Assembly (NCBI GenBank): GCA_029288895.1
Contig: JARIGK010000001.1
Coordinates: 65,446 to 129,445 of the forward strand
DNA length: 64,000 bases
Direction: 5' to 3'
From: Candidatus Adlerbacteria bacterium
Lineage (GTDB): Bacteria; Patescibacteriota; Minisyncoccia; Phycocordibacterales; SBAW01
This document shows positions 10,092-62,413 of the stretch, piece by piece. Both the position numbers and the translations under genes were made by a program. The notes below the pieces were generated by a model. The model saw only the letters and a list, made by a program, of their open reading frames with translations. It was not told the DNA's origin and searched no databases. How positions within the stretch are numbered: the first letter of the stretch is position 1; each line of letters opens with the position of its first letter.

Positions 10092-10148
10092 TCAAGAGCG
10101 TTTACAGGGCTCTTTGTGGCAGCTCCGGGTATACGGTATTCTTCTAGT

Positions 10149-10745
10149 ATGAGTACTCGTCCCATTCCTCGTCTTGTAGTCGGAGGAATACTGATGTGCC
10201 TTATATTTGCTCTCGCTCTTCAGGGTGGCGAGGCGTCTGCTGCAACACTTACGTCTCCGGTGACAGTGACAGGTAGTATTAGCGTGCTCGGCACGCTCTC
10301 CAAAGGTTCTGGTACATTCGTCATTGACCATCCGCTCGACCCTGCGAACGAATTGCTGTACCACTCCTTCGTCGAATCACCAGATGTAAAAAACCTCTAC
10401 GACGGCATCGCCACACTCGACAGCAAGGGGGAAGCGACAATTGTGTTGCCAGATTATTTTCTTGCACTCAATAAAGATTTTCGATATTTAGCAACACCCA
10501 TTGGCGCTCCTATGCCTACCTTGCATTTGGGCAAAGAGGTGGGCAAGCGCTGGTTTAATCTCTTTGGGGCAATACAATTTAAAATAACGGGTGGTGTGCC
10601 GGGCGGCCGCGTCTCATGGCAAGTCACGGGCATCCGCCACGACAAATTTATCGAGGACAATCCTATCCAGGTTGAAGTAGAAAAGACTGACGACACACTG
10701 GTAAAGAAGGGTGAATATCTTTTCCCTGAATTCTATGGACACTAA
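10149..10745 (+). CDS. Secreted protein with a conserved 'GSGTFVIDxPxDPANxLLYHSFVESPDVKN' domain (paralog 1 of 3).
   Basis: Signal/TM segment followed by the core KGSGTFVIDHPLDPANELLYHSFVESPDVKNLYDGIATLDSKGEATIVLPDYF, which is nearly identical in the next two genes. Confidence 0.55.
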   Translation: MSTRPIPRLVVGGILMCLIFALALQGGEASAATLTSPVTVTGSISVLGTLSKGSGTFVIDHPLDPANELLYHSFVESPDVKNLYDGIATLDSKGEATIVLPDYFLALNKDFRYLATPIGAPMPTLHLGKEVGKRWFNLFGAIQFKITGGVPGGRVSWQVTGIRHDKFIEDNPIQVEVEKTDDTLVKKGEYLFPEFYGH

Positions 10746-11292
10746 ACGAAACACTCTAAGAATTGGTGTAAGTATGTTAATACTGGCGATTCCCGTGCTC
10801 GCGTCTGCTGTCACCCTCACTGGAAACATACAATTTAAAGGAAATTTGGCGATAACAGGGGCGCTCTCGAAAGGCTCCGGCACCTTCGTCATCGATGATC
10901 CCATTGACCCTGCTAACAAACTGCTCTATCACTCGTTCGTCGAGTCGCCAGATGTAAAAAACATCTACGACGGCATCGCAACACTCGACAGCAAAGGGGA
11001 GGCAACTATTGTGCTGCCAGATTATTTCGATGCGTTGAACAAGGATTTTCGGTATGAATTTTTCCCGCTCGATAAGGCCGATCCAGGGCTCTATATAAAA
11101 ACTGGCGCCGACGTTGTGAAGAATCAATTTACGATTGCGGGCGGGACGCCAGGCGACCGCGTTTCGTGGCAAATCACTGGCATCCGCCACGACCCGTACA
11201 TTCTTGCGAACCCGGTTGTGGTAGAGGTTCCGAAAACCAACGATACTATTGTAAAAAAAGGCCAGTATCTATTTGAGGGGTATGAAAAATAA
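10735..11292 (+). CDS. Secreted conserved-domain protein (paralog 2 of 3).
   Basis: Same core domain with more than 85% identity over about 70 aa. The start is uncertain; either ATG 10735 or ATG 10774. Confidence 0.5.
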   Translation: MDTKRNTLRIGVSMLILAIPVLASAVTLTGNIQFKGNLAITGALSKGSGTFVIDDPIDPANKLLYHSFVESPDVKNIYDGIATLDSKGEATIVLPDYFDALNKDFRYEFFPLDKADPGLYIKTGADVVKNQFTIAGGTPGDRVSWQITGIRHDPYILANPVVVEVPKTNDTIVKKGQYLFEGYEK

Positions 11293-11986
11293 GACGATAT
11301 ATTTTTTTGCGCTTGCTTCACTTATATGTATGCCCATGGTGTGCGTGCACGCCTACGCTGAAGGCGGATATTACGGCCAAGGATATTATGAAGGGTATTA
11401 CCAAAGCTATTATCAGCCGTACTATCAGCCGTACTATCAGCCAACGTATCAAACGGTATTTACAAAAAATGCTGCTGCAAGCAAGACGGTGGCGGTTACG
11501 GGTAGCGTATCAAAAAGCTCCGGTACCTTCGTCATTGATGACCCAATCGACCCCGCTAACAAATTGCTTTACCACTCGTTCGTCGAGTCGCCTGACGTCA
11601 AAAACATCTACGATGGCATCGCAACACTCGACAGCAAGGGGGAAGCGACAATTGTGTTGCCCGATTATTTCGATGCGTTGAACAAGGATTTTAGATATCT
11701 GACGCGCCCAATTGGCGCCCCTATGCCAAACCTCTACATCAAAGATGAAGTGCACGACAACACATTTAGTATCGGTGGCGGGAGCCCTGGTGGACGTGTC
11801 TCATGGCAAGTCACTGGGATTCGCCACGATGCGTATATCGTTGCACACCCTATTGTCCCGGTGGTGGATAAAAGCAAAGACACAATCGTCGACCGTGGGA
11901 GCTATATCTATCCTGCAGGATTCACTTCATTTGGGAGTACATTCTTTGGATCTCTCTCGACGTTTTTTAATGCTATTTTCCACTAG
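11282..11986 (+). CDS. Secreted conserved-domain protein (paralog 3 of 3) with an N-terminal Tyr/Gln-rich low-complexity stretch.
   Basis: GGYYGQGYYEGYYQSYYQPYYQPYYQPTYQ followed by the same core domain. Confidence 0.5.
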   Translation: MKNKTIYFFALASLICMPMVCVHAYAEGGYYGQGYYEGYYQSYYQPYYQPYYQPTYQTVFTKNAAASKTVAVTGSVSKSSGTFVIDDPIDPANKLLYHSFVESPDVKNIYDGIATLDSKGEATIVLPDYFDALNKDFRYLTRPIGAPMPNLYIKDEVHDNTFSIGGGSPGGRVSWQVTGIRHDAYIVAHPIVPVVDKSKDTIVDRGSYIYPAGFTSFGSTFFGSLSTFFNAIFH

Positions 11987-13183: not shown

Positions 13184-14779
13184 TTATTTTCTAAGCTCGA
13201 GTAGTCGTGCTGTAAGTGGTGCGAATACTTCTGTGTGAGCGCGCGCATCCAGTGCTAGAAGGGTAGATAGTGCGTATGCAGATTGTAGGTCGCGTTTGTA
13301 CGAAAGTAGTGTATAGCCTGTAGGTGCAAGCTCCACTGTCGAGCGACTTTCAAATAATGATGTGCCAGGGGGGAATGGGCCCGTCTCATTTCCGATCATA
13401 AAGAGAGATGAAATGCCGCCGCGCAACATAAAAAACACGCTCGTCCGGTATGGGTCGTACGTGCCGGTAACATAGGTGCCAAGCGAAAGGTCATCGAAGT
13501 AACCTACGACACGCTCAAAATGTGCGCTTCCTGTGCGCGAAGCTAATACAAGGTTCCGAAGCGTTTCGAGTTGTTCGGCCCCAAGCATCGCAGGGAGTGT
13601 GCGTTGGTCTGTTGTAGTGAGGAGCCGTTCCGCACTTTGTATAAATGCTCGATACGATTGCTCGCGAGGCACATCTTCACTAATGAGTTCGTTTTGTGCA
13701 GCGAGCATATCATGTACGGTGGATGAGTTAGAAGGCATGAGCGGGACGATAGGATGTTGTTGCAATGTTTCGCGTGCGTCTTGTATCGACAGCAGAAGCC
13801 CAACGTCCTGGCCAAAATCTTGGCAAATATAGGCATTAAATGATTGGTTGGAATAGGTCGCCCCAGTGTTGTAGTACGCCTTGCTGTAGCGCACGGGTAT
13901 TTTCTTGAGGTCGTAAAAGAAAGAGTCGTTCAAGATTGTAAAATATTCCGCTGTCACGCCAGAAAGTATGGACGCGTGTGTTCCCACATCAACATATGCA
14001 GGAGTAAATGACGGATAGCATCGTGAATGAGAAAGTGCAACGGTGGTCGTGTCGGTAAGCGTTACGCCGAGGCGTGCAGTAAACGCACGCGCTGCAGTTT
14101 TGATATACGCCACATCGCTCGGGAGGTCGGTCGATGCAGGTAATGTGTTCTGTGCTGATGGAGAAGAGGCTCCTGATGGAGGCCAATACCTCCAGTGTGC
14201 GCACTCGAGCACGTTACCTTCTGCACACGAGTAGCGCCTATTTTCTTCTTTTCTCATTGCGATGAGCCCTTGTCTGCCTCGTTCGAGCACTGACATGATA
14301 TACCCTGAGCTTGTAGTGCCGCCAAAGGATTGAATGGTAGTTTTTTTGCCGACATCGAGCGCCGCAATATCGTGTGCGAGCGCTGCATCATATGAATCAA
14401 AAAGTGCGAGAAGGGCAGCGTGGTACGCGTCTGCATGTGCTGATGTCGGCTCTGTAAGGAGTGCTCTTCGTTTTTCTTCTGCCGAGGCGCTAGCTTCAAG
14501 AAATGCGATTGGGTAGACACCGTGGCTCCATGAGCCATCCGAATCGTCGCTGAAGGGGAGTACTGCAACGCGCGCACTTTTTTCGAGCTCTTGTGTCGCC
14601 GTGATCATATCAGGCAGCGATGTTCGAGGAAGCGCCATCATGGGATATTCCTCATGTTGCCGTGCATATCCGGCCCATCCATCTGCGTGTGCGGAGTAGA
14701 AGAAATACCCTAGAACTATAAGGATACAAAGGAGAAGTGCGAGACCAAGGCGGAGTGCACGTATTCTTGCAGCCTTCAT
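13184..14779 (-). CDS. 531-aa N-terminally membrane-anchored protein of unknown function (paralog of 16615..18246).
   Basis: Single N-terminal TM segment. Shares AEPT(S/Q)xHAxxYHAAL(L/H)AL and other blocks with the 546-aa paralog. Divergent from the cassette 2 peptide, sharing the AGTATACT palindrome. Confidence 0.55.
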   Translation of the reverse strand: MKAARIRALRLGLALLLCILIVLGYFFYSAHADGWAGYARQHEEYPMMALPRTSLPDMITATQELEKSARVAVLPFSDDSDGSWSHGVYPIAFLEASASAEEKRRALLTEPTSAHADAYHAALLALFDSYDAALAHDIAALDVGKKTTIQSFGGTTSSGYIMSVLERGRQGLIAMRKEENRRYSCAEGNVLECAHWRYWPPSGASSPSAQNTLPASTDLPSDVAYIKTAARAFTARLGVTLTDTTTVALSHSRCYPSFTPAYVDVGTHASILSGVTAEYFTILNDSFFYDLKKIPVRYSKAYYNTGATYSNQSFNAYICQDFGQDVGLLLSIQDARETLQQHPIVPLMPSNSSTVHDMLAAQNELISEDVPREQSYRAFIQSAERLLTTTDQRTLPAMLGAEQLETLRNLVLASRTGSAHFERVVGYFDDLSLGTYVTGTYDPYRTSVFFMLRGGISSLFMIGNETGPFPPGTSLFESRSTVELAPTGYTLLSYKRDLQSAYALSTLLALDARAHTEVFAPLTARLLELRK

Positions 14780-15335: not shown

Positions 15336-16618
15336 CACCGCTCTCCCGCGCGCTTTCATTTGCGATTGAAAATCCGCATTCTGATTTTTACCGCCGCAAG
15401 TACGGCAAAGACTTTCGTGCGTATATACAAAAAGAACTTTCGGAGATTCCATTTCTGACAAGACAAGAAATAGATACAACGCCCGTGTTTGACCGCATCT
15501 TTGTTCCAAAAGAAATGGTCCGGTTTGTGCGTGCGACCTCAGGTTCGTCCGGGCGCGGCGCAGTTCTATTTCCAGCAGTCGAAGAGCCGGAGATGATGGA
15601 CTTCCGACGTTCGCTCGGGTTTAGCGGCGACGAAGGTGAGGCCGGGCGCTACTTCGGGCCCTATTTTAAAAAAGAAGATGCATATTCACTGTTGATGTTT
15701 TCTACGTCCGATGCTTTGCATCAAGCCTATTTTTCCGACTACGCTGGCCGGAGGGTTATCGCGGGCGACTATCAACACGCAGAAAAGACAGTTGCACTGT
15801 CGGCAGCTGCAGGCGTTGATTCGATATTTTCATTTCCGTCGCCGCTTATCAGCATTGCAGACACTTTCAAAAAAGATGGTTTTGCCTCGCGCATCAAGAT
15901 GATTGTGCTCATGGGTGAGCGTATGACAGAACTCCAGCGCAGAACGCTTGTTGCGCAGTTTCCTCATGCAAAGATCGTCACGCTCTATGCGTCCACTGAT
16001 GCACATGGAACGATGGGGAATACGTGCCCTGCTCGCGTGACAGAATTTCCTAACCATATTCATCCGTTTCCAACATATGCGCTTGAAGTTATTGACCCTG
16101 AGTCGGGCATGGCGCTCCCTATGCAGGCAGGCACGGAAGGAGAAGTGGTAATCACGGCACTCACGCCGATGGCGTTTCCGCTCATTCGATATCGCACCGG
16201 AGATTATGCGGTCGTGCACGCCAGCGGCCCATGTGCGTGCGGCAGTACTGAGCCGCTTCTTGAGATTTTGGGCAGAGTAGAACTCGATCGCATTAAACTG
16301 CTCCCGTATGGCGGCGTGAGCGTTGCGGCTATCGAAGAAGCAATTGCTGCCCTTCCATTTCCTGTTCTTGATTTTACTGCTGCATGGTCACAGAAGGGTC
16401 CGCTGCCGGGACTCTCGCTCGTGCTCTATACCGACGGGTCTGTACCTCATGATTCTGTCGCGCTCGTGGCAGAGAAAATCCAAGTCAGCGCGACCCATAC
16501 GTATCACGATGTAGTGGTGCGTGGTGCTGTCTTGCCACTTACAGTTTCTTTTGAACCTGCAGCGGGTGCGCGTGGTCCGCATCATGCAAAGCCTAAACGT
16601 CTGCAGATTATCCGTTAG
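15332..16618 (+). CDS. PaaK / F390-synthetase-like adenylate-forming enzyme (cassette 2 ligase).
   Basis: RATSGSSGRGAV P-loop, YRTGD hinge, 428 aa. About 50% identity to the 3419..4702 product. Confidence 0.75.
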   Translation: MTPLSRALSFAIENPHSDFYRRKYGKDFRAYIQKELSEIPFLTRQEIDTTPVFDRIFVPKEMVRFVRATSGSSGRGAVLFPAVEEPEMMDFRRSLGFSGDEGEAGRYFGPYFKKEDAYSLLMFSTSDALHQAYFSDYAGRRVIAGDYQHAEKTVALSAAAGVDSIFSFPSPLISIADTFKKDGFASRIKMIVLMGERMTELQRRTLVAQFPHAKIVTLYASTDAHGTMGNTCPARVTEFPNHIHPFPTYALEVIDPESGMALPMQAGTEGEVVITALTPMAFPLIRYRTGDYAVVHASGPCACGSTEPLLEILGRVELDRIKLLPYGGVSVAAIEEAIAALPFPVLDFTAAWSQKGPLPGLSLVLYTDGSVPHDSVALVAEKIQVSATHTYHDVVVRGAVLPLTVSFEPAAGARGPHHAKPKRLQIIR

Positions 16619-18246
16619 TGGCTAGTGTCTGTATGAGTGTGCGCGTAGCGAGCGCGAGCATCGAGAAGGGACGAAATAAAGCCTCCAAATACCTGTTGGC
16701 GGATCTGTATATCTTGGAGAAGTGTCTTTTGCAATTCGTTTCTTGAAAGTTCTTTGCTCACGTCGTGTGTATATGAACGGATAGTGCCATTAAGCAATGC
16801 ATTATTCGAATCGGATGCGGTTGCGCGCACCTCGACGAGTGAGCGGAAGATGGGCTCCACCGTTCTATTATTGAGTGCAAATAATTGCGAAAGCCCGCTG
16901 CGTGCAATAAGAAATGCTTGCGGCGAGCTTTTTCTGTATTGATATGGAATATAGCTGCCGACTTGGAGGTCGTCGAAATATCCAAGCACTTCGGCGAGAT
17001 CGGCGCTACGCGCTCTGCTTTGGGCTACTAGTTCGGTGAGACGCGCGGCTTCTTCGCTGCTGCCGAGATAGTGCGCTAACGCATCTATCCCGTAGATGCG
17101 CACCAGCATGGACGATGCTGATATAAACGCATTGTAGGTGCGTTGCGTGTATACATTTTCTTGCAGCACGTGTTTTTGTGCCTGTATAAATTGCTGCGCC
17201 GTTGGTGTCAGAGAGCCGGAAAATAGAAACGGCTTGGTTCGAAGAGACGCCGAGAGATTTGAAATAGCAAGAACGTCGCCGATGTCTTCGCCTGCATCAG
17301 GGCACAAATACACGTTGAAGGGCTGATACGTAAATGTGTCGCCTGCGCTGGCGAGCGCGTGGTAAAACGGATGGTCGGTACGGGTCGTGTCGTCGAGATA
17401 TATGTCGCTCAGTAGTACAACATTGGCTGCTGCGATTCCTGAAAGTCTGGATGAGGTCGTCGCGACTGCAAAATATATCGGCGCATAGGCGTAACATGCA
17501 GAGGACGAAAGTTCTATAAGAGGAGAGGAATCAAGAGAAGGATAGACTACTGTGAGTGTCTTCCTATTCTCTACCGCTTCTTCCGTGGATGAAGATTCCG
17601 ATTGAGATTCAAGCTCTTGTGCGCTATGGAGTGTGCCAAACGTTGCGCGTGCATATATGAGTGACTCGCACTGAGATGCGGTTCCTTGTTCGCACTGCCA
17701 GCGTCTGTCTTCTTGTGCGAGTAATGATTGAGCATCTGTCTGTGCGTGCGCAAGACGCTCTTCTATATGTGCGCTTGTGGTTTTGCCACTTAAAAAATCA
17801 AACTCTGCAGGATCGTTTTGTTGGAGAAGCACATTCCGCGCATTTCTCAGGTCGTCTATATACGAAGAGATAAGCGCGTGCAGTGCAGCGTGGTACATGG
17901 AGGCGTGTTCTTGTGTCGGCTCGGCAAGAAGAGCGCGTCGAGCTGTTTCGGTGCGTGGGAGTTGGTCCAAAAAACGAAATGGGTACAGCGCGTCGCGTGT
18001 GGCCTCGCCTTCGAGGTATGGAGGTACTGCAACCGCTGCGGAGAGTTTAAATTCGGACACCGCATGTGTAAGCGATTCGGGCGTACTTCCTGGGAATGCA
18101 AATAGTGGATCAAGCTGCTGCATCTGTGCGTATGCGGCCGCACTGCCTTGCATGGTGTACATTTCATGCAACCGCTCCCATGCGCCTATGCCAAAGAGGG
18201 CAGCCACCAACAGAAGGCAGAGGAGGCCGGTTTTGAGTCTATACAT
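16615..18246 (-). CDS. About 543-aa N-terminally membrane-anchored protein of unknown function (paralog of 13184..14779).
   Basis: Convergent with ligase 2, with a 4-nt overlap. Probable ATG at 18246. The track extends it to a TTG at 18255. Confidence 0.55.
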   Translation of the reverse strand: MYRLKTGLLCLLLVAALFGIGAWERLHEMYTMQGSAAAYAQMQQLDPLFAFPGSTPESLTHAVSEFKLSAAVAVPPYLEGEATRDALYPFRFLDQLPRTETARRALLAEPTQEHASMYHAALHALISSYIDDLRNARNVLLQQNDPAEFDFLSGKTTSAHIEERLAHAQTDAQSLLAQEDRRWQCEQGTASQCESLIYARATFGTLHSAQELESQSESSSTEEAVENRKTLTVVYPSLDSSPLIELSSSACYAYAPIYFAVATTSSRLSGIAAANVVLLSDIYLDDTTRTDHPFYHALASAGDTFTYQPFNVYLCPDAGEDIGDVLAISNLSASLRTKPFLFSGSLTPTAQQFIQAQKHVLQENVYTQRTYNAFISASSMLVRIYGIDALAHYLGSSEEAARLTELVAQSRARSADLAEVLGYFDDLQVGSYIPYQYRKSSPQAFLIARSGLSQLFALNNRTVEPIFRSLVEVRATASDSNNALLNGTIRSYTHDVSKELSRNELQKTLLQDIQIRQQVFGGFISSLLDARARYAHTHTDTSH

Positions 18247-18269
18247 GCGCTTCAAGTATACTAAATACC

Positions 18270-45910: not shown

Positions 45911-46060
45911 ATGATCTTTGTGGAGCGAGTGCAGTTTGGCACTCGCTCCCAGAGGGGTAAGAGTACTTTATAGAGTTTGTGCGTGACTTGTGTCTTGCGA
46001 ACTTCGGTTCGCGGACATTATGACCTGCACAAGGTCCAATTAATAAATAAAAGAATAAGT

Positions 46061-47089
46061 ATGACGAATACAAACAACATTTCAACTGCACGCCGCGCAC
46101 TTTTCGGCTCTTTCGCTATGCTTGTAGTCGCATCAATGTTCTCATTGGGGTTTGTGCACACTGCCCATGCCCAGGAAGACGGCGTCATCGGCTCATACGA
46201 TACTGATGGAAGTATCGGATCCTACGATACTGGGAGTATTGGATCGTACGCCCCTAATGGCACTATCGGTACTTATACAGACGGTGTAGTGGGGACATAC
46301 AACAATAACGTTGATGGTGTCGTTGGTACTTATTCTTCCAATGTTGATGGAGCTATCGGTACTTATGTCGATGGTGTAGTGGGGACATACAACAATAACG
46401 TTGATGGCGTTATTGGGACATATACTTCAGCCCCAACAACGTATGTTTCCGGTGGCTACGCTGGTTCCTACTATCCCGCATACTACGGTTACGGTGGTTA
46501 CTACGGCGGTGGTTCGTACTACGGCTCGACATATTACGGAACTTCGTACTACCCAACCTACACGCCTAACTACGGCACAAACACGTACAACAGCAGCACG
46601 ACCTATGTCTCGAACGGTTACGCTTCTAGCGGCTCGTCTGGCAGCAGCGTTATCTACAGCGGCTCGACGTATTCATACCCTGTCATCACCGGTGTGTACC
46701 CGGTCGCAATGGCAGGCGGCCCGTCAGTGAGCCTCTCGGCAATTCCGTACACTGGCCTCGACCTTGGCGTAGGCGGCACGATCGCATATTGGTCATTCCT
46801 TATCCTCTGGTGCCTCTTTGCGGCATACCTCATCACCGTCAAGCGCGTGCATAACAAACTTATAACGATGCTCTTCGGCGAAAAGGATGCGCACGTGGCT
46901 GTCGCAGCGCACCAGGTGCACGAAGCAGTTGCTCACAAAGAGCAGGCACACGCGGGCCATGGGCACGATACACACGGCGCGTCGCACGCAAAACCTCACG
47001 CTCACGCACCAGTTGCAGCAGCTACCCAGGTAATCGACCCAATCGACCCCTTCATCCAATCGCAGATTGCGAACCGTACCGAAAAGTAA
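46061..47089 (+). CDS. Secreted low-complexity surface protein, probable sortase substrate 1. DG[VA][IV]GTY repeats, Gly/Tyr-rich, C-terminal IPYTGLDLG-TM-KRVH...LFGE module plus a His-rich tail.
   Basis: Signal peptide, about 11 DGxxGTY repeats, then SAIPYTGLDLGVGGTIAYWSFLILWCLFAAYLITVKRVHNKLITMLFGE and HVAVAAHQVHEAVAHKEQAHAGHGHDTHGASHAKPHAHA. Confidence 0.6.
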   Translation: MTNTNNISTARRALFGSFAMLVVASMFSLGFVHTAHAQEDGVIGSYDTDGSIGSYDTGSIGSYAPNGTIGTYTDGVVGTYNNNVDGVVGTYSSNVDGAIGTYVDGVVGTYNNNVDGVIGTYTSAPTTYVSGGYAGSYYPAYYGYGGYYGGGSYYGSTYYGTSYYPTYTPNYGTNTYNSSTTYVSNGYASSGSSGSSVIYSGSTYSYPVITGVYPVAMAGGPSVSLSAIPYTGLDLGVGGTIAYWSFLILWCLFAAYLITVKRVHNKLITMLFGEKDAHVAVAAHQVHEAVAHKEQAHAGHGHDTHGASHAKPHAHAPVAAATQVIDPIDPFIQSQIANRTEK

Positions 47090-55415: not shown

Positions 55416-56315
55416 ATGGCGAATAGACATCTTTCACGGTCGGTCGTACTCCAAACCCTGTTTGAATGGGACTTTCGCAATTGTTCAAAAGAGCAACTTT
55501 CTGAGTCGCTTCTTCGTAATGCGGGTGAGTTCGCGCCCGGCGCGGGCGATATGCCGTTTATGGAAGAGCTCCTCCAGGGCGTTGTCGACAGAAAGGCCGA
55601 TCTCGACTTGGTGATAGAAAAAGCTGCACCGGAGTGGCCGCTTGAACGTATCGCATTAGTCGACAGAAATGTCCTCCGCCTTGGCCTCTACGAATTGCTC
55701 TTTTCTGATCGAGAAAAAGTGCCGGCAAAAGTTGCAATCAACGAAGCTATCGAACTTGCTAAAAGCTTTGGCGGCGAAAACAGCGGACGCTTTGTAAACG
55801 GTGTGCTCGGTGCTGTCTACAAAGAGCTTGGCGAGCCAGGCAAAGACGAAGTCTCTAAAAAGAAAAAAGATGTTCCGTACGAGCAACTGCCAGTGCAGAA
55901 GCTTGGCGGCGCTATAGTGTACGCGCGCCACAATGGTGAAGTGTATTTGGCGCTGGTGCACGATATCTTCGGCCACTGGACGCTGTCGAAAGGAAAAATT
56001 GGCGATAAGGAGGAGTTTGCAAACGAGACGGTCGAGGAGGGAACCATCCGCGAGATCAAAGAAGAGATGGGCCTCGACATCAAACTGATAGAAAAGGTGG
56101 GCGAGAACGAGTACGTAGCGTCGGACCCTAAAACGGGCAAGAAGCGCAAGCATGTGGTGTATTTCTTGGCAGAGGCGCCCTATGGCGAAATAAGTTTAAA
56201 GGTGACAGGCGGGCTCGACGATGCACGATGGTTCAAAGTGTCGGATGCGCTTGAGCTTAATTTTTATGACGATATGTTGCCGCTTGTTACAAAAGCATTG
56301 CAGCAGATTAAATAA
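55416..56315 (+). CDS. nusB: NusB antitermination factor fused to a C-terminal NUDIX hydrolase domain.
   Basis: N-terminal 140 aa NusB-like (RSVVLQTLFEWDF...RFVNGVLGAVYKEL). The C-terminal part has the Nudix box GKIGDKEEFANETVEEGTIREIKEEMGL. Confidence 0.75.
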   Translation: MANRHLSRSVVLQTLFEWDFRNCSKEQLSESLLRNAGEFAPGAGDMPFMEELLQGVVDRKADLDLVIEKAAPEWPLERIALVDRNVLRLGLYELLFSDREKVPAKVAINEAIELAKSFGGENSGRFVNGVLGAVYKELGEPGKDEVSKKKKDVPYEQLPVQKLGGAIVYARHNGEVYLALVHDIFGHWTLSKGKIGDKEEFANETVEEGTIREIKEEMGLDIKLIEKVGENEYVASDPKTGKKRKHVVYFLAEAPYGEISLKVTGGLDDARWFKVSDALELNFYDDMLPLVTKALQQIK

Positions 56316-57132: not shown

Positions 57133-57450
57133 ATGCCTAGTGAAAACAAGGAGAAGCAAGACCTACATCAACGTCTTGTCGGCTGGCATGCCCATAAATT
57201 TGGTCTTAGCCATGAAGCCGATGAAGATGAGGTGATGGATCACGATCGGAAGTTGCGCGCGCAGGCGCAAAACCTTCCTGAAGACGCCAATTGGTTCCGT
57301 GTCTTTTGTGCTGAGCTCAAGTCAGGAATCAAAAATCCCACCATCCTTGCGTTCTGGGATTCGGATGGGGGATTGAGTTGGTCCGACGATCCTTCAATGG
57401 CGCTTGATCCTGCTCGGGAAGCGCATACAATTTTCTGCAAGGAAGAATAG
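57133..57450 (+). CDS. Hypothetical protein (about 105 aa). Start uncertain; the track ORF begins at 57049.
   Basis: GGAGG lies 5 nt upstream of ATG 57133. No recognisable motif. Confidence 0.3.
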   Translation: MPSENKEKQDLHQRLVGWHAHKFGLSHEADEDEVMDHDRKLRAQAQNLPEDANWFRVFCAELKSGIKNPTILAFWDSDGGLSWSDDPSMALDPAREAHTIFCKEE

Positions 57451-57506: not shown

Positions 57507-59720
57507 ATGCGGCTGAAGTCGATAGAACTCACGGGGTTTAAGTCATTTGCGCGCAAGACGGAATTGCAATTTGCGTCGGCTATTACTGCTATCGTGGGAC
57601 CAAATGGTTCTGGTAAATCGAACATCGCTGAGTCGTTCCGCTTTGTGCTTGGCGAGCAGTCGATGAAGTCTATGCGCGGCAAGCGCGGTGAAGATATGAT
57701 CTGGAACGGTTCAGGTGCGGTGCCGCGTGGCGGCCGTGCGTCCGTTAAACTGGTCTTCGACAATAGCGACCGCGCACTCAATTTGGATTTTGATGAAGTA
57801 ACGCTCGAGCGTGTCGTGTACCGCGACGGCGGTAACGACTATTTGCTTAACGGTAGTCAGGTGCGCTTGCGCGATATCTCGGAATTGTTGGCGCAGGCAA
57901 ACATTGGCGCATCGGGCCACCATATTATTTCGCAAGGCGAGGCAGACAGGATACTTTCGTCATCATCAAAAGAGCGCCGCGAGATGCTCGAAGACGCACT
58001 TGGCCTCACCGCCTATTTGTATAAAAAAGAAGAAGCAGAGAAAAAGTTAGAGAAAACTGCCGAGAACATGCGCGAGGTCGAAAGCTTGCGCCGCGAATTG
58101 GCACCGCATCTGCGCTTTTTGCAAACACAGGTAAAGAAAATAGAGCAGTCGCAGAAATTACGCGAAGAAACAACACTCGCCTATATCGAATACTTTAAAC
58201 GCGAAAGCGTCTACTTGAATGTCGCAGGTGCCATGCTCCGCGAAGAAAAGAGCGCACCACAAAGCGAATATACAAATCTGCAGGGCCGCATCGAACATTT
58301 GCGCGCCGAAGTCGCCAAAAAGCAGGGCGACACAGGGGCGTCCGAACTAGTGGCGCTCGAAGCTGAGGGTCGGGCTGCTGCCTCGCGCGAGGCGTCGCTT
58401 GTTCGCGACATTGGCCGCATCGAAGGAGAGATTTCTGCACACGAACGCATTGCACATACGGTGCAAGACTCTGTGCCTGGTGCTGAAGCGCGCGCATTTG
58501 CGCAGCGCGTCGAGCGTGATTTGGAAAGCGCACTCCAAGGTGGCGACATGCACGCAACACTGTCGGCGCTTATTGCATTGGCAAAAGATTTTTTGCATAA
58601 GATTACGCGCGTCCAAGAGCAGACCGGCGACTCTGTTGAGGATTTGAAGCAGAAGAAAGAATCTTTAGAACGTGAACTTGAGACGCTGCGCGCAACCCAA
58701 GAGGGCATCCAAGCAAAAGTCCGCGAATTGCGCACCAAGATCGAAGGCGAAAAGGATGCCAACCGCGAAGCCGAGCGCGAATTGTTCCAAGCAATGGCAA
58801 AGCGAAGCGAGTTGGAAGCAGTGCTTTCAAACCTGCGCAACAGGGAAGATATGCTCGCGCGCGACGAAGCGCAGTTTAAACAAGAATTGGGCGAGGCTGC
58901 TGCACTCTTGGGCCGCGAAGTTGCAGAGTACGAACAGACAAATGTATATGCCGAAAACGGCGGGGCTATTTCCGATGCCGAAATTGCAGACGAGCCGCGG
59001 CAAAACCAAGAAGAGCGCCGCCGTGCACTTGAGCGAAAGAAGATTCGTTTGGAGGAGCTTGGTGCCGGCAACTCGAGCGAGGTATTGAAAGAGCACAAAG
59101 AAACAACCGAACGCGATGAATTTTTGGCGCGCGAATTGAACGACCTCGAGGCATCGGCAGTGTCACTCAAACAGTTGATTGTGGAACTCACGGAGACATT
59201 GTCTGTCCGCTTTACCGAAGGTGTCGACAAAATCAACAGCGAGTTCGATCGCTTCTTTAAGTTGATGTTTGGCGGCGGCTCGGCAGCCTTGAATATCGTC
59301 AAAGAAAAGAAATTTGCTCGTGGTGAAGAAAATAATGAGAGTGATGAAGACAACGAAGATGTTGAAGAGGGTGTGGAAATTGGTATCTCGCTGCCCCACA
59401 AGCGCATCAAGGGGTTGCACATGCTTTCGGGCGGCGAACGCGCGCTTACATCCATTGCGCTTATCTTTGCGATGAGCCAGGTAAACCCGCCGCCATTTTT
59501 GATCTTGGATGAAACAGAAGCTGCCCTCGACGAAGCAAACTCACGCCGCTATGGCGACATGATAGAAAGTTTGGCAGAAAAATCGCAGCTTATTTTGATC
59601 ACGCACAACCGCGAAACAATGTCGCGCGCAGGTATCCTCTACGGCATCACGATGGGCTCCGACGGCGTCTCCAAACTCCTCTCCGTTAAATTCGAAGATG
59701 CACTCGCGGTGGCGAAGTAA
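57507..59720 (+). CDS. smc: SMC-family chromosome segregation ATPase, unusually short (about 738 aa).
   Basis: N-terminal MRLKSIELTGFKSF and Walker A GPNGSGKSN. Coiled-coil middle. C-terminal LSGGERALTSIALIFA signature plus Walker B LILDETEAALD. Synteny rnc-smc. Confidence 0.75.
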   Translation: MRLKSIELTGFKSFARKTELQFASAITAIVGPNGSGKSNIAESFRFVLGEQSMKSMRGKRGEDMIWNGSGAVPRGGRASVKLVFDNSDRALNLDFDEVTLERVVYRDGGNDYLLNGSQVRLRDISELLAQANIGASGHHIISQGEADRILSSSSKERREMLEDALGLTAYLYKKEEAEKKLEKTAENMREVESLRRELAPHLRFLQTQVKKIEQSQKLREETTLAYIEYFKRESVYLNVAGAMLREEKSAPQSEYTNLQGRIEHLRAEVAKKQGDTGASELVALEAEGRAAASREASLVRDIGRIEGEISAHERIAHTVQDSVPGAEARAFAQRVERDLESALQGGDMHATLSALIALAKDFLHKITRVQEQTGDSVEDLKQKKESLERELETLRATQEGIQAKVRELRTKIEGEKDANREAERELFQAMAKRSELEAVLSNLRNREDMLARDEAQFKQELGEAAALLGREVAEYEQTNVYAENGGAISDAEIADEPRQNQEERRRALERKKIRLEELGAGNSSEVLKEHKETTERDEFLARELNDLEASAVSLKQLIVELTETLSVRFTEGVDKINSEFDRFFKLMFGGGSAALNIVKEKKFARGEENNESDEDNEDVEEGVEIGISLPHKRIKGLHMLSGGERALTSIALIFAMSQVNPPPFLILDETEAALDEANSRRYGDMIESLAEKSQLILITHNRETMSRAGILYGITMGSDGVSKLLSVKFEDALAVAK

Positions 59721-59951
59721 GTTGTGTTTCGAACAAAACTGTTTTATATAAAAAGAGACCTCAACAGAGGCCGATGTTTATTTGGGAGAAGGTAGTATGG
59801 TTGGTCAGAATCTGCTCTTCAGCGGCGAATTTCTTTACCGGCGTGTGGGTCTGGGCATCTTCAGGCGCTCCATTGGAGTGGCGCCTGGCCCTTGGCTCCA
59901 GTCGGATGACATCTCTATCCCCGACACGGTTAAGAAGTTTTTCGGAATCGC

Positions 59952-60041
59952 TTAGTCGACAAGTTCGAAATCAGCGGTTCGAGCGGCCAAATCGGTCGCA
60001 GTAAGTTTTACGCGCGCGGTATCACCGAGCGCGTATTTTTT
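59952..60041 (-). pseudogene. Fragment duplicating the last 30 codons of rnr (HKKYALGDTARVKLTATDLAARTADFELVD*). It carries a plus-strand terminator hairpin downstream of smc.
   Basis: About 80% nucleotide identity to 60455..60548, with 36/37 identity over the hairpin and T-tract. Stop codons lie on both sides of the 30-codon remnant. Confidence 0.6.
60009..60041 (+). terminator. Rho-independent terminator for smc (TACGCGC...GCGCGTA plus T6).
   Basis: 7-bp stem, 13-nt loop, TTTTTT. Confidence 0.6.
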
Positions 60042-60057
60042 ATGCTAGGCTAACCGT

Positions 60058-60426
60058 ATGAATACAAGAGGCATTTTTGAAAATATACTCGATGTGCTTA
60101 TTTTTGTTATCGTTACTCTACCTATTAGCCTCATGCTTTTCTTTAGTACGTTCTGTACAGGAGACGAAGGTGATCTCGGTACTTGCGCTATTAGCCTATT
60201 CACCCCTGTGTTCAATGCAGTGTCTGCCTTCTTGCTCTTGGCGGCCTTTACAGGGATCGTTTGGATACCGTTCGTTTTTGCAGGTCTTATAATTTCGCTT
60301 GTAATAAAAGTGCGCCGCTATCGTTCAGGAGGATTCCCAAAACCCGTTGGCAAACGTGTCGTTGAATGTATAACACTTTTGCCTTTTGTGGTCGTTTTGG
60401 TCGTTTTGTACTTCTCCTACCAGTAG
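60058..60426 (+). CDS. Small polytopic membrane protein (122 aa, about 4 TM helices), hypothetical. Flanked by the duplicated rnr 3'-end element.
   Basis: Hydrophobic helices (ILDVLIFVIVTLPISLMLFF, AFLLLAAFTGIVWIPFVFAGLIISLVI, LLPFVVVLVVLYF). Confidence 0.5.
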   Translation: MNTRGIFENILDVLIFVIVTLPISLMLFFSTFCTGDEGDLGTCAISLFTPVFNAVSAFLLLAAFTGIVWIPFVFAGLIISLVIKVRRYRSGGFPKPVGKRVVECITLLPFVVVLVVLYFSYQ

Positions 60427-60454
60427 CCTCGTTTATTGGCAAACTGATGAGCCA

Positions 60455-62413
60455 CTAGGCATTGACCAATTCGAAATCTGCAGTGCGGGCCGCTAGGTCC
60501 GTTGCAACGAGTTTTACGCGCACGGTATCACCGAGCGCGTATTTTTTTTGCGTGCGCTGGCCGACGACAGCGTATTCTTTTGGTTTGTGTTCGAAAAAGT
60601 CTTTACCGATTGCCTTCATACGGACGAGGCCTTCTGATGCAGAAATTTTATCTTCCACATAAATGCCCCAGTCGGTAACGCCAGAAATAACCGCATCAAA
60701 TTCTTGCCCGACGCGTGCGCTCAAATACTCCACCTGTTTGTAGCGGATAGAATCGCGCTCGGCCGAGACGGCCTTCGCTTCCTGTTCGCTTGCCGTGAGG
60801 CACATCTTTTCCAATGTCGAATACTCGCGGCGGGTAATTGGTTTGCCGTCCAAGTGCGACGCTAAGATGCGGTGCACGAGCATGTCCGGATAGCGGCGGA
60901 TAGGCGAGGTAAAGTGCGTGTAGTAGTCGAACGCCAAGCCGAAGTGCCCGATGTTGCGTGTCGAGTAAATAGCTTTCGCCATCGAGCGCAAGGTTGCTGT
61001 GCGGATCAAATGTTCCTCAGGTGTGCCTTTGATGTCGTCCAACAATTTGCCGATATCTTTTGCAGACGGCTTTCTTTTCTTGTTAGAAAATTCGTAGCCT
61101 ATTGCGCGCACAAACGTTGCCAATTCGTCGATGCGGTCGGCCTTTGGGTCGTCGTGGATGCGGTAGAGGAAGACCAGACCGTGTTCTGGATTCTTTTCTG
61201 CCAACTTGGAGACATACTTTGCCACCTCGCGGTTGGCCAAGAGCATGAACTCTTCAATAAGAAGGTTGGTCTCGATACGCACTTTGCGCACGACGCCCAC
61301 AGGCACACCTTTTTCGTCGAGCTGGAATTTTACTTCGTTATCGCCGAAGTCTATTGCGCCCTGCTGTTCGCGCTGCTTGCGCATGATGCGCGCCAAATCT
61401 CGAAGAATAGTAAGCGCTTCGATATGTTCGCCCTCATTTTTATCTAAAATTTCTTGTGCCTGCTCGTACGTAAAGCGTTTGTTAGAACGGATGATTGATT
61501 TGGCAAACGAGCGTTCGAGTACGTCGCCCCCTTTGGTGATTTTGAATACTGCCGAAAAGGCGAGGCGATCTTCGTCGGCCTTCAAGCTGCAGACGTTGCC
61601 CGACAACTCGTGCGGGAGCATCGGGATGGTTGCATCAACAAGGTATACAGACGTGCCGCGTTTTACTGCCTCGTCATCTATAGCGGTGCCAGGTGCGCAG
61701 AAGTAGGTTGCATCGGCGATGTGTACGCCGATTTCATAATTACCATCTGGCAGCGTTTCAATCGAAAGTGCATCGTCGAAGTCCTTTGCATCCACGGGGT
61801 CGATAGTAAAGGTGAGTTTGTCGCGATAATCGGCACGCTTCTTCGCCTCTTCTTCAATAATCTGTGCGTGATTCTTTTCTATCTCTTGTGCCTCGCGCAT
61901 CACTTCGGGCGGGAAGGTGGTAGAGAAGCCGTGCTCGAGCACGATGGCGTTCATCTCCACACGATGTTGGCCCGCTTCGCCGATATTCTGCATCACGCGA
62001 CCTTTTGCCGTAGTGCCATCAAACGATACAAGTTCAACCAAAAGCTTCTCGCCTTCTTTGAATTTTTGGCCCACATCAATTGCGGTCTGGAAGCGCATGT
62101 CGTCGGGCATGACAAGGCCTGCCTTTACCGTGCAGACAAAACGCGTCTTTGCACGCTGTGCGATGTTGATGACGCGGCCGCGCGGGCGAGGGAAGAGCGA
62201 AAGCAGTTCCACCTCGACCTGGTCGCCGTTTAATGCGCCATTGAGCTTCTCTGGGAAAATCTCGATATCTTCTTTCTCTTTCTGTGGCTTGTCTGCCTTT
62301 TCATCAACAGGCCACGCGAGGTACCCCGTGCCTTTGCGGGTTACTTGGACAATGCCTGAAATATGCTTCTTTTCGCCCTTCTGGCGCCCCTGGGGAGTCA
62401 TTAATAACCTCAT
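60455..62413 (-). CDS. rnr: Ribonuclease R / RNase II-family 3'-5' exoribonuclease.
   Basis: N-terminal cold-shock/OB domains, RNB domain (HFGLAFDYYTHFTSPIRRYPDMLVHR), C-terminal S1 domain. Confidence 0.88.
   Translation of the reverse strand: MRLLMTPQGRQKGEKKHISGIVQVTRKGTGYLAWPVDEKADKPQKEKEDIEIFPEKLNGALNGDQVEVELLSLFPRPRGRVINIAQRAKTRFVCTVKAGLVMPDDMRFQTAIDVGQKFKEGEKLLVELVSFDGTTAKGRVMQNIGEAGQHRVEMNAIVLEHGFSTTFPPEVMREAQEIEKNHAQIIEEEAKKRADYRDKLTFTIDPVDAKDFDDALSIETLPDGNYEIGVHIADATYFCAPGTAIDDEAVKRGTSVYLVDATIPMLPHELSGNVCSLKADEDRLAFSAVFKITKGGDVLERSFAKSIIRSNKRFTYEQAQEILDKNEGEHIEALTILRDLARIMRKQREQQGAIDFGDNEVKFQLDEKGVPVGVVRKVRIETNLLIEEFMLLANREVAKYVSKLAEKNPEHGLVFLYRIHDDPKADRIDELATFVRAIGYEFSNKKRKPSAKDIGKLLDDIKGTPEEHLIRTATLRSMAKAIYSTRNIGHFGLAFDYYTHFTSPIRRYPDMLVHRILASHLDGKPITRREYSTLEKMCLTASEQEAKAVSAERDSIRYKQVEYLSARVGQEFDAVISGVTDWGIYVEDKISASEGLVRMKAIGKDFFEHKPKEYAVVGQRTQKKYALGDTVRVKLVATDLAARTADFELVNA
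60515..60549 (+). terminator. Plus-strand rho-independent terminator embedded in the 3' coding end of rnr (minus strand). It terminates the 60058..60426 transcript.
   Basis: TACGCGC-ACGGTATCACCGA-GCGCGTA followed by T8. Confidence 0.55.

Follow-up and report, generated by a model that had tools for sequence, protein, structure and literature searches.

Integrative elements that target the 3′ end of a gene, together with the integrase-less, cis-mobilizable derivatives of such elements, are flanked by imperfect direct repeats of the target 3′ end and leave the target gene itself intact. At rhs, CDI and T6SS loci, as described by Kirchberger et al., 2017 (PMC5361080), with reference to Jackson et al., 2009, an incoming allele recombines by way of a gene's conserved portion and brings a new 3′ end and a downstream gene with it, and the resident end is displaced together with the gene behind it and kept as an orphan; homology-facilitated illegitimate recombination is an established model for displaced 3′ ends at rhs and T6SS loci. 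Terminator-mapping studies, as summarised in PMC7566282 with reference to Ju et al., 2019, distinguish terminators that lie between convergent genes from others that lie within coding regions, with A-tracts enriched at the convergent ones. The locus described here, in a 64-kb window (the whole stretch of DNA analysed) from a genome of the Paceibacterota (CPR), is a clean case of two known phenomena and does not add a new type of system.

The locus lies where the gene for RNase R (rnr, minus strand, 60455..62413; RNB, CSD2 and S1 domains), recognised from its ORF, homologues, Pfam domains and synteny, meets a convergent smc-like ATPase gene (SMC_N, plus strand, 57507..59720), assigned from its ORF, from PF02463 in the orthologues of all relatives and from alignment. 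The smc ORF opens at 57450, and the relatives begin with MRLKSIEL, which corresponds to 57507. The gene order, rpsP-KH-trmD beside rnr with a small ORF and smc facing it, is kept in all relatives. Rfam returned a single tRNA for the whole window and no known RNA family in the smc-rnr interval. The RNase R of the window and the product of the small gene discussed below as X are database entries P0001 and P0002.

Within this interval the 3′ end of rnr occurs twice. A repeat search found one two-copy family (n=1), an ungapped direct repeat of 88 nt (59958-60045 versus 60464-60551), 81% identical and with a spacing of 506. Copy B (minus strand, 60455..60551) is the genuine terminal 31 codons of rnr and translates on the minus strand as QKKYALGDTVRVKLVATDLAARTADFELVNA plus stop; its hairpin occupies 60515-60541 and its plus-strand T-tract 60542-60549, where the sense strand reads Gln-Lys-Lys. 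Copy A (minus strand, 59952..60045), established by repeat search, translation and tblastn, consists of 30 codons plus stop that translate as HKKYALGDTARVKLTATDLAARTADFELVD and match rnr at 87% over 30 aa (tblastn, E=6e-13); it is made up of a tail (codons 13-29 plus stop, 59952-60005), a hairpin (60009-60035) and a plus-strand T-tract (60036-60041). Because copy A has no start codon and a TAG directly upstream shuts its frame, we regard it as an orphan fragment, an untranslatable 3′ piece of rnr lying downstream of the intact gene in matching orientation, as a displaced end would. The 27-nt hairpin core is found at exactly these 2 sites in the 64-kb window with up to one mismatch allowed (0 expected from 100 shuffles), and the two repeats share a block of 25 consecutive identical nt. 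The preliminary description of this DNA had already reported a repeat of the rnr end on either side of a small gene, with a stretch identical at 36 of 37 positions. Both points hold: the repeat encloses a 122-aa gene, the first 39 nt of the copies differ at only 2 positions, and self-comparison carries the similarity past the hairpin core and across the full 88 nt. A duplicated rnr tail was seen in 0 of 8 relatives, so that the bracket around a small gene is found in the window alone.

Let us consider the hairpin before the duplication. Both copies fold on the pattern TACGCGC.CGG(T)...(A)CCG.GCGCGTA, with a GC-rich stem of 7 bp, a bulge and then a further 3-4 bp (dG -20.9 kcal/mol for copy A and -20.7 for copy B, z about -3.4 for both), and a T-tract comes next on the plus strand, T6 for copy A and T8 for copy B. 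The palindrome folds just as well on the rnr transcript; there it is followed by AAAACT and no U-tract, and the terminator signal is thus one-directional. A simple terminator scan listed neither hairpin, since the bulged stem breaks its ‘loop 3-8’ rule. The antisense hairpin is present in 9 of 9 clade members, with dG from -14 to about -20 and 7-9 T-rich bases after it. The 13-codon window QKKYALGDTVRVK that holds it ranks first of 644 in rnr by its synonymous codon identity of 0.706, where the mean is 0.507 (sd 0.075), and it is still the first of 614 scored windows when amino-acid-specific codon bias is corrected for. At the stem codons TAC, GCG and CGC, 36 of 36 pairs agree exactly; conservation of the loop codons GGN and GAY is below the gene average. 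In L001 and L167, G-to-A changes produce a U.G wobble in the antisense RNA and a C.A mismatch in the sense RNA, so that the stem changes are wobble-compatible on the antisense strand only. True compensatory double changes were absent within the close clade, as its stems are invariant.

Further genomes point the same way. L168, a more distant relative whose rnr is 73% identical, uses other codons for the same peptide and has a different, perfect 10-bp antisense hairpin followed by ATTTCTTTTT (dG -18.1), and L012, L086 and L087 carry unrelated strong hairpins with a T-tract at the same rnr codons. On the contig of P0005, 1 bp separates the end of smc from rnr, so that any smc terminator there must sit within rnr. 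A co-oriented unit precedes the hairpin in all relatives; in the window smc and a 52-aa ORF precede copy A, and X precedes copy B. With stem-loop, U-tract and signs of selective maintenance all in place, both hairpin copies most likely terminate transcription arriving on the opposite strand, and we take the hairpin with its T-tract on the smc strand to be ancestral to the clade. That the rnr C-terminus would carry such a signal on the opposite strand, and would be constrained both as peptide and as nucleotide sequence, had been proposed from the window alone; the signal is seen in both copies, and the codon comparisons agree with the double constraint.

This arrangement resembles convergent intrinsic terminators in having a GC-rich stem-loop with a U-tract on the arriving strand, a convergent meeting point and a 5′ A-tract. 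It differs from them in that the whole hairpin and its U-tract are set 55-95 nt into the opposing gene, within conserved S1-domain codons, and in being one-directional, with a dual constraint visible as synonymous sites frozen across the clade.

Copy A would not terminate smc by itself, as the preliminary description had it. A predicted terminator does follow smc, but smc ends at 59720 and a conserved small ORF, here called Y, lies between (plus strand, 59797..59955; 52 aa; Shine-Dalgarno 5-13 nt upstream). Copy A would therefore end a unit made of smc and Y. The stop of Y overlaps the stop of the orphan tail on the opposite strand by 3 nt (59953-59954). Y resembles a 65-aa ORF of L083 through the motifs YRxVG...FRR and IPxxV (tblastx), and it had no Pfam or PHROG match. 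Between smc and Y there is a ‘type II’ leader (plus strand, 59738..59796), shared at 84% identity with L083 only, with an AT-rich -10-like TATATAAAA and the Shine-Dalgarno GGGAGAAGG at 59784-59792. Its hairpin, GACCTC-AACA-GAGGCC (59757-59772), is followed on the minus strand by TCTTTTTATA and has a minus-strand folding energy of -10 kcal/mol (z -3.4, compared with -1.5 for the plus strand); the terminator scan listed it as a terminator-like minus-strand site, and it is a candidate terminator of rnr.

The manner in which the two rnr ends have diverged bears on how they came to stand side by side. Downstream of the hairpin, copies A and B differ at 15 of 48 nt with 1 of 16 amino acids changed; within this comparison of only 48 nt, 13 of the 15 differences are synonymous and 11 fall at third positions (P of at least 11, 1.4e-4), and in a simulation of 15 random substitutions one amino-acid change or fewer was never seen in 200,000 trials (P<5e-6). 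Both tails encode the clade-specific ending ATDLAARTADFELV, and each matches L081, the closest relative, at ~80% identity and is thus nearer to it than the tails are to each other (69%). Such a synonymous bias argues that the copies diverged as working rnr ends in two separate lineages and would have been joined afterwards by recombination; ends derived from different alleles are what displacement leads one to expect. The preliminary description had spoken of a duplication. Copying of a ~0.5-kb segment, or of the rnr tail, within this genome, followed by decay of the non-functional copy, would agree with the direct-repeat topology and with the near identity of the hairpin parts. Decay predicts mostly non-synonymous changes and indels, however, and the tail, with a single codon changed, is at odds with that; a tandem event predicts an order A-X-A-X, but nothing akin to X is seen in the sequence to the left of copy A (59721-59951); and tail A is as distant from tail B as from the tails of other species. 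Neither a whole unit repeated head-to-tail nor neutral decay of a spare copy was found, and we consider within-genome copying barely credible.

The contrast between the two halves of the repeat invites a different reading. The head of copy A is nearest to the head of copy B (2 differences in 39 nt), whereas its tail ranks with the most distant ones (15 in 48), and one might suspect a recombination core at the hairpin, as had been suggested, or a recent gene conversion. The head and tail differ in the same manner in unrelated pairs of clade members, however, L081 and L082 for example differing at 1 of 39 and 12 of 48 positions, and we have mostly rejected the near identity of the hairpin half as a sign of either. 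It nevertheless belongs to the case for site-specific integration, in which an element with an att site mimicking the rnr 3′ end would have been inserted by a tyrosine or serine recombinase at a hairpin att core, the 506-bp unit being its decayed or non-autonomous remnant between attL and attR. As in integrative and cis-mobilizable elements, repeats of the target 3′ end surround inserted DNA, cargo lies between them and rnr is intact; the 88-nt repeats contain the block of 25 consecutive identical bases; and the head and tail differences are consistent with a crossover at the border of the two. Unlike in those elements, the cargo is a single 369-bp gene, and no recombinase, mobility genes, second copy or viral match was found: the 506-bp unit and its immediate surroundings contain no recombinase, a Pfam scan of 10 minus-strand ORFs of the window revealed none, the core recurs nowhere else in the window and in none of 2.9 million viral contigs, and none of the 8 relatives has the duplication. 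The X family is, in addition, without a phage-family match and is represented by an ordinary chromosomal gene beside smc in L168, and the identity of the heads is largely explained by the clade-wide constraint. Integration of this kind appears unlikely to us.

The gene between the copies, X (plus strand, 60058..60426; 369 bp), was recognised from its ORF and its homologue family and encodes a small membrane protein of 122 aa. A word-indexed search matched X alone and made it look like an ORFan, a view overturned by a full HMMER scan, which found 31 homologues of ~120-135 aa, 28-43% identical, with invariant D12, C33, C43, K84 and P109; Pfam and PHROG gave no match. On this basis 60058-60426 is to be taken as a member of a real gene family. 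In L168 and L169 its homologue P0122 is found directly 3′ of smc, within the interval between smc and rnr. X has a GC content of 42.5%, the window as a whole one of 51.7%; we rejected GC content as a test of foreign origin, the X-family gene of L168 being equally AT-rich relative to its own genome. The two rnr ends have different, unrelated genes next to them, Y by copy A and X by copy B, a further feature in common with displaced 3′ ends.

Alignment and promoter scan place the sole novel junction of the locus at 60042..60057 (without strand). The homology to rnr stops at ~60042-60045, directly past the T-tract, after which TAGGCTAACCGT leads to the ATG of X; the sequence shared at the junction amounts to GCA and an A-run. 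The promoter scan showed no evident promoter or Shine-Dalgarno at 60042-60057, and X accordingly starts 12 nt past a predicted strong terminator with no visible signal of its own. The X protein is recorded from one contig only, and this single contig, assembled from a metagenome, is the source of the locus, so one should ask whether two coexisting strains, one with Y and the other with the X interval, have been stitched together by the assembler at a shared hairpin. The metagenomic origin, the 25-nt identical block, close in length to an assembler k-mer, and the tails, which look like alleles of two related populations, would suit this reading. But a k-mer chimera would join the hairpin to the body of rnr and not to the 5′ flank of X, so that the join at 60042-60057 demands an adjacency found in neither postulated strain, and an analogous boundary duplication is present in the independent assembly L166. 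An assembly artefact strikes us as distinctly unlikely.

The relatives place the junction in a wider setting. Their smc-rnr intervals range from 1 bp to 3.2 kb and have contents that are non-homologous from one relative to another, so that the smc|rnr junction is, by this comparison, a variable hotspot. L166 has a 170-aa gene that, together with its terminator, stands between the two copies of a 29-nt direct repeat (24 of 29 identical, E=0.001) of the final 12 nt of smc and the leader, which we read as a second boundary-duplication footprint, similar in kind to that of the window. The two footprints differ in sequence, in size (88 versus 29 nt) and in the side of the interval on which they lie; in both, the novel junction falls directly after the T-tract of an intrinsic terminator on the smc strand. 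This coincidence could mean that the terminator hairpin itself sets the site of gene capture. The smc|rnr junction would then be an integrase-free stacking site with the rnr hairpin as landing pad, where ‘gene + terminator’ units from relatives are appended by terminator-end-directed joining, RNA-templated or by way of hairpin-capped single-stranded DNA taken up in competence, just past the T-tract, at the point expected for the end of a terminated transcript or of a hairpin-protected single strand. We regard this idea as very unlikely. Capture in the manner of integrons, with hairpin-ended cassettes inserted serially by a dedicated hairpin-recognising enzyme, might likewise appeal to these junctions and to the two tandem gene-plus-hairpin units of the window. 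But no integrase gene is adjacent, the repeats of the window and L166 do not match one another in the respects listed above, and the hairpin of copy A carries with it 51 nt of genuine rnr coding sequence whose divergence is of the coding type, which indicates an origin in an rnr gene and not in a cassette recombination site. We find integron-like capture more improbable still.

We propose, with somewhat more confidence than doubt, a two-layer explanation that combines an ancestral terminator embedded in rnr with recombination between lineages at the smc|rnr junction. The rnr hairpin would serve as intrinsic terminator for the convergent smc unit, this dual use freezing the synonymous sites of the stem. 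The genome of the window would then have recombined at the junction with DNA of a related member of Paceibacterota bearing a different small gene in this interval. One side of the exchange was perhaps homologous, in smc or in rnr and possibly in the conserved hairpin, and the other illegitimate, which would have created the junction at 60042-60057, where the T-tract ends; with only one side homologous, the incoming gene would be added and not swapped. The rnr 3′ end of one lineage, 30 codons long, would have stayed behind as the untranslated orphan, so that the event would be a small-scale 3′-end displacement by homology-facilitated illegitimate recombination. As a consequence, both plus-strand small genes would now have their own copy of the terminator downstream, copy B ending whatever transcript covers X. 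Two mirror-image versions fit equally well, one in which tail B and X are foreign and copy A and Y native, and another in which Y and copy A are foreign and X and tail B native. Natural competence has been demonstrated in Saccharibacteria, another CPR phylum, according to PMC10187176.

The sequences themselves show the repeat, its coding-type divergence, the conservation of the hairpin throughout the clade and the lack of the duplication in relatives; what we infer from them is the mechanism and direction of recombination as well as the termination activity. The genome scan gave one close relative only, L001, at 78%, and a metagenome scan with the whole RNase R gave nothing above 50% identity, generic RNB-motif matches dominating it. 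Neither a relative with RNase R identity above 87% nor an empty-site genome nor a donor genome was found in our searches. In sliding windows along rnr and smc the nearest relative stays constant toward either 3′ end, with no donor tract visible in the presumed anchor, and the rnr-proximal interval sequences, compared in an attempt to tell which tail is native, were unalignable between any genomes.

Compared with rhs, CDI and T6SS loci, the displacement we favour would share the orphan 3′ end and the new downstream gene that accompanies each end. It would differ in affecting a housekeeping RNase and not a polymorphic toxin; in that the displaced piece is 30 codons of nearly the same peptide, with no new protein function exchanged; and in that the accompanying genes are small ORFs without known function and not immunity genes.

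The locus offers a sequence-only, internally controlled case of a coding stretch that also carries a structural signal of the opposite strand, found in uncultured CPR bacteria, whose genomes are compact. For annotation, it suggests that orphan gene tails and terminators within coding sequences should not be taken for duplications or pseudogenes, and it is a candidate for tests of termination and recombination once these organisms become tractable. For Paceibacterota, the locus would keep a datable footprint of recombination between lineages, and it suggests that the convergent junction of two housekeeping genes can serve as a small hotspot of gene turnover.

The rnr gene, which encodes RNase R on the minus strand (60455-62413, 652 aa), ends in a stretch present twice at this locus. 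Sequence reading and a repeat search, the self-comparison proposed in the preliminary description, found an ungapped 88-nt direct repeat whose copies, A at 59958-60045 and B at 60464-60551, share 81% identity at a spacing of 506 bp, and the earlier account of a repeated rnr 3' end bracketing a small gene was correct. Copy B comprises the final 31 codons of rnr. Copy A reads HKKYALGDTARVKLTATDLAARTADFELVD followed by a stop on the minus strand, and because a TAG lies directly upstream and there is no start codon, it is an orphan that is not translated. ORF X (60058-60426, 122 aa) is flanked by the two copies. smc ends at 59720, and the space from there to copy A holds a leader and a 52-aa ORF (59797-59955) preceded by a good Shine-Dalgarno sequence. 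The 27-nt hairpin core within the repeat occurs exactly twice in the 64-kb window, compared to zero occurrences expected by chance, and the repeat search returned no other such repeat near the smc-rnr locus.

Farther away, 10116-11986 holds three tandem units of ~550-640 bp across three consecutive ORFs of 193-237 aa, with repeat families at 10279/10847/11490 and 10575/11125/11762 (70-85% identical), which looks like a triplicated gene or domain. Two 82-nt units at 46257-46428, 85% identical and 90 nt apart, form an in-frame 30-aa tandem repeat within ORF 45977-47089. Two minus-strand ORFs without Pfam matches, 13184-14779 (531 aa) and 16615-18255 (546 aa), have in common an 81-nt stretch of 70% identity (14390-14470/17860-17940) and are possibly paralogues. 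Upstream of rnc, 55416-56315 encodes a 299-aa NusB-NUDIX fusion protein; the PF01029+PF00293 fusion was also called in L082, L164 and L167.

Both copies of the repeat fold into a 7-bp GC-rich stem with a one-base bulge and 3-4 bp more (dG ~ -21 kcal/mol, z ~ -3.4), followed on the plus strand by T6 in copy A and T8 in copy B, the complement of Gln-Lys-Lys codons, and on the rnr strand by AAAACT. A consensus terminator scan skipped both solely since the bulged stem fails its loop rule. An antisense hairpin (dG -14 to -20) with a T-rich tract of 7-9 bases is present in 9/9 clade members, and when nine rnr genes are aligned by codon, the 13-codon window QKKYALGDTVRVK ranks first of 644 windows for synonymous codon identity (0.706; mean 0.507, sd 0.075) and keeps this place among 614 scored windows after normalisation per amino acid for codon conservation. 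The stem codons TAC, GCG and CGC are identical in all 36 pairs, CTC in 28/36 and GTG in 21/28, while the loop codons fall below the gene average (GGN, 10/36 vs 0.47 expected; GAY, 16/36 vs 0.65 expected). G-to-A changes in L001 and L167 still allow U.G wobble pairing in the antisense RNA, whereas rnr mRNA would have a C.A mismatch there. In the more distant L168 (73% RNase R identity), different codons specify the identical peptide and form another antisense hairpin, a perfect 10-bp one with ATTTCTTTTT after it (dG -18.1). Most Bacteroidota rnr genes have no such antisense hairpin and T-tract. These comparisons indicate that the antisense-strand hairpin is ancestral and structurally constrained. 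In one relative's contig (P0005) the interval between smc and rnr is 1 bp, so any smc terminator there must be inside rnr. The dual coding/terminator role of the rnr 3' end, predicted from comparative sequence, is well supported, and with frozen stems and free loops the earlier proposal of a plus-strand terminator inside rnr under double peptide and hairpin constraint gains support. Convergent genes are well known to share terminators or to contain them (PMC7566282); the present case stands out in that the putative terminator lies entirely within conserved S1-domain codons of a housekeeping gene, and the dual constraint is cleanly seen at synonymous sites. Three distant CPR genomes (L012, L086, L087) have strong antisense hairpins (dG -15 to -21) and a T-tract in the last ~100 nt of rnr, placed over these S1-domain codons (..LGDKVRV..), their sequences bearing no relation to the hairpin of the window, which suggests that rnr-embedded antisense terminators may have evolved repeatedly.

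For the comparison of the two copies we divided the repeat into a 39-nt head (A-run and hairpin) and a 48-nt tail, which differ at 2 and 15 positions, respectively. Among the tail differences, 11 are third-position and two are synonymous first-position Leu changes, and the amino acid is changed in one codon (Val to Thr); in 200,000 simulated runs of 15 random substitutions, none gave one or fewer amino-acid changes, and the probability of at least 11 third-position hits is 1.4e-4. Both tails therefore diverged almost entirely under selection for RNase R coding, and one of them must have come from another lineage. Duplication in place, one element of the preliminary description, is rejected on the same pattern of substitutions. 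Both tails encode the clade-specific ATDLAARTADFELV ending, and each is ~80% identical to L081 and 69% to the other, so the donor was another species within the clade. The orphan copy A, whose hairpin stem is intact, has changed at three nucleotides in Val codons that are invariant elsewhere (Val to Ala, Val to Thr), which fits a brief relaxation of constraint after the event. The 36/37 identity of the hairpin half, previously emphasised, stands as near-identity and loses most of its special meaning: L081 and L082 differ at 1/39 head and 12/48 tail positions, and since unrelated clade members have the same contrast, most of the head identity reflects clade-wide constraint. The copy A head is nonetheless nearest the copy B head, with GGT GAT ACC unique to both, whereas its tail is among those most distant from the copy B tail; over a 48-nt tail comparison, with numbers too small to decide, the pattern slightly favours crossing-over at the head/tail border, or gene conversion at a later time.

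By genome scan and protein searches the window was assigned to Candidatus Paceibacterota (CPR), its nearest RNase R proteins being 87%, 84% and 81-83% identical and that of the GTDB representative 78%. The eight close relatives whose DNA was compared (L001, L081-L083, L164-L167) all have the layout rpsP-KH-trmD, then rnr, facing a small ORF and smc on the opposite strand, and in this comparison, suggested earlier, none has a second rnr tail; the duplication is thus peculiar to the window genome. The one metagenome scan yielded no close relatives. Most relatives have an interval of 192-327 bp, while L166 has two genes in 867 bp and L168 five in 3.2 kb, and the rnr-proximal sequence of the interval was alignable between no two genomes. 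A type I leader, GTTGTATAGT...GTACAAAGGGAG...ATG, occupies the first ~60 nt past the smc stop in L081, L082, L164, L165, L166, L167 and L001, and the small ORFs after it are mostly unalignable with one another. The type II leader, with a hairpin at 59757-59772, occurs only in the window and L083, whose 65-aa ORF is homologous to the 52-aa ORF. The leader types are out of step with the smc and rnr gene trees, where L081 is nearest to the window, and their distribution suggests that interval cassettes may be exchanged between lineages.

X itself was the sole match in a word-indexed protein search, and full HMMER scanning of 1.8 billion representatives returned 31 homologues with 28-43% identity and about the same length, sharing an invariant Asp, two Cys, Lys and Pro; X is thus a real gene of an unannotated small membrane-protein family. 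The best homologue lies directly 3' of smc, on the same strand, within the smc-rnr interval of L168 and L169, so the family belongs to this locus in related genomes, and because X is AT-rich here and its homologue likewise in L168, composition is no mark of foreign origin. Family members of ~125 aa (L168:4001-4378, L169:2120-2497, L170:33-413) carry the motifs FCSGWNEGS..GTC, with two invariant cysteines, and KI.RY; the GWNEGS motif is largely lost from X of the window.

The promoter scan showed neither a promoter nor a Shine-Dalgarno sequence for X, which would be expressed via read-through of copy A or from an unrecognised promoter. The earlier view that copy A terminates smc agrees with its hairpin and T-tract, but the leader and 52-aa ORF intervene; on the plus strand the smc/52-aa unit would end at copy A and any X-spanning transcript at copy B. 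Minus-strand rnr transcripts meet their first U-tract only at hairpin 59757-59772 and probably run antisense across X, copy A and the 52-aa gene. That hairpin (GACCTC-AACA-GAGGCC), just 3' of smc, is followed by its better T-tract when read on the minus strand (TCTTTTTATA). The convergent terminators seem 'crossed', that of smc being inside rnr and the candidate rnr terminator beside smc, which implies overlapping antisense 3' regions over the whole interval.

The sole adjacency natural to no genome of the clade is 60042-60057, at the foot of the copy A T-tract and 12 nt before the X ATG. The simplest history would be one homologous exchange and one illegitimate join with DNA of a relative carrying another interval gene, that is, homology-facilitated illegitimate recombination leading to 3'-end displacement. 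The anchor might have been in rnr, with tail B and X incoming and copy A and the 52-aa gene native, possibly through a Campbell-type single crossover in the hairpin; or it might have been in smc, bringing in the type II leader, the 52-aa gene and 30 donor rnr codons next to native X and tail B. These mirror versions both fit the data; no empty-site genome was found, and the nearest relative is unchanged near the 3' ends of rnr and smc. The topology would also fit site-specific integration, as a cis-mobilizable-type remnant, but no recombinase was found in the 506-bp unit or among the 10 window ORFs scanned, and there is no recurrence or mobile-element association. Integron-like capture is rejected, copy A being demonstrably a piece of rnr and no integrase lying adjacent. 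The locus comes from a single contig of a metagenome-assembled genome, and a chimera of two strains is conceivable; however, k-mer joining at the hairpin would fail to yield the observed adjacency to the X 5' flank.

In L166 (5747-6660), the two-gene interval includes a 170-aa gene with a terminator of its own (GCGGTCCTCGGGCCGC TTTTTCTTTT), and on either side of this unit stands a copy of a 29-nt direct repeat (24/29 identical) made up of GTGGCAAAATAA, the last four smc codons (12 nt), and ~17 nt of type I leader ending TGTATAGT. This is another boundary-duplication footprint of the locus, located at the opposite side of the interval and in an independent assembly, and it supports the general recombination model. 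In both footprints the junction directly follows a T-tract; that terminator ends themselves direct the joining nevertheless strikes us as very improbable. Natural competence is documented in another CPR phylum (PMC10187176). Recombination is well known to leave orphan 3' ends, and for the fragments at rhs and T6SS loci the accepted explanation is 3'-end displacement by homology-facilitated illegitimate recombination (PMC5361080). Particular to the present locus is that its orphan tail would record an exchange between lineages of an uncultured CPR clade, in which the smc-rnr junction behaves as a small gene-turnover hotspot.
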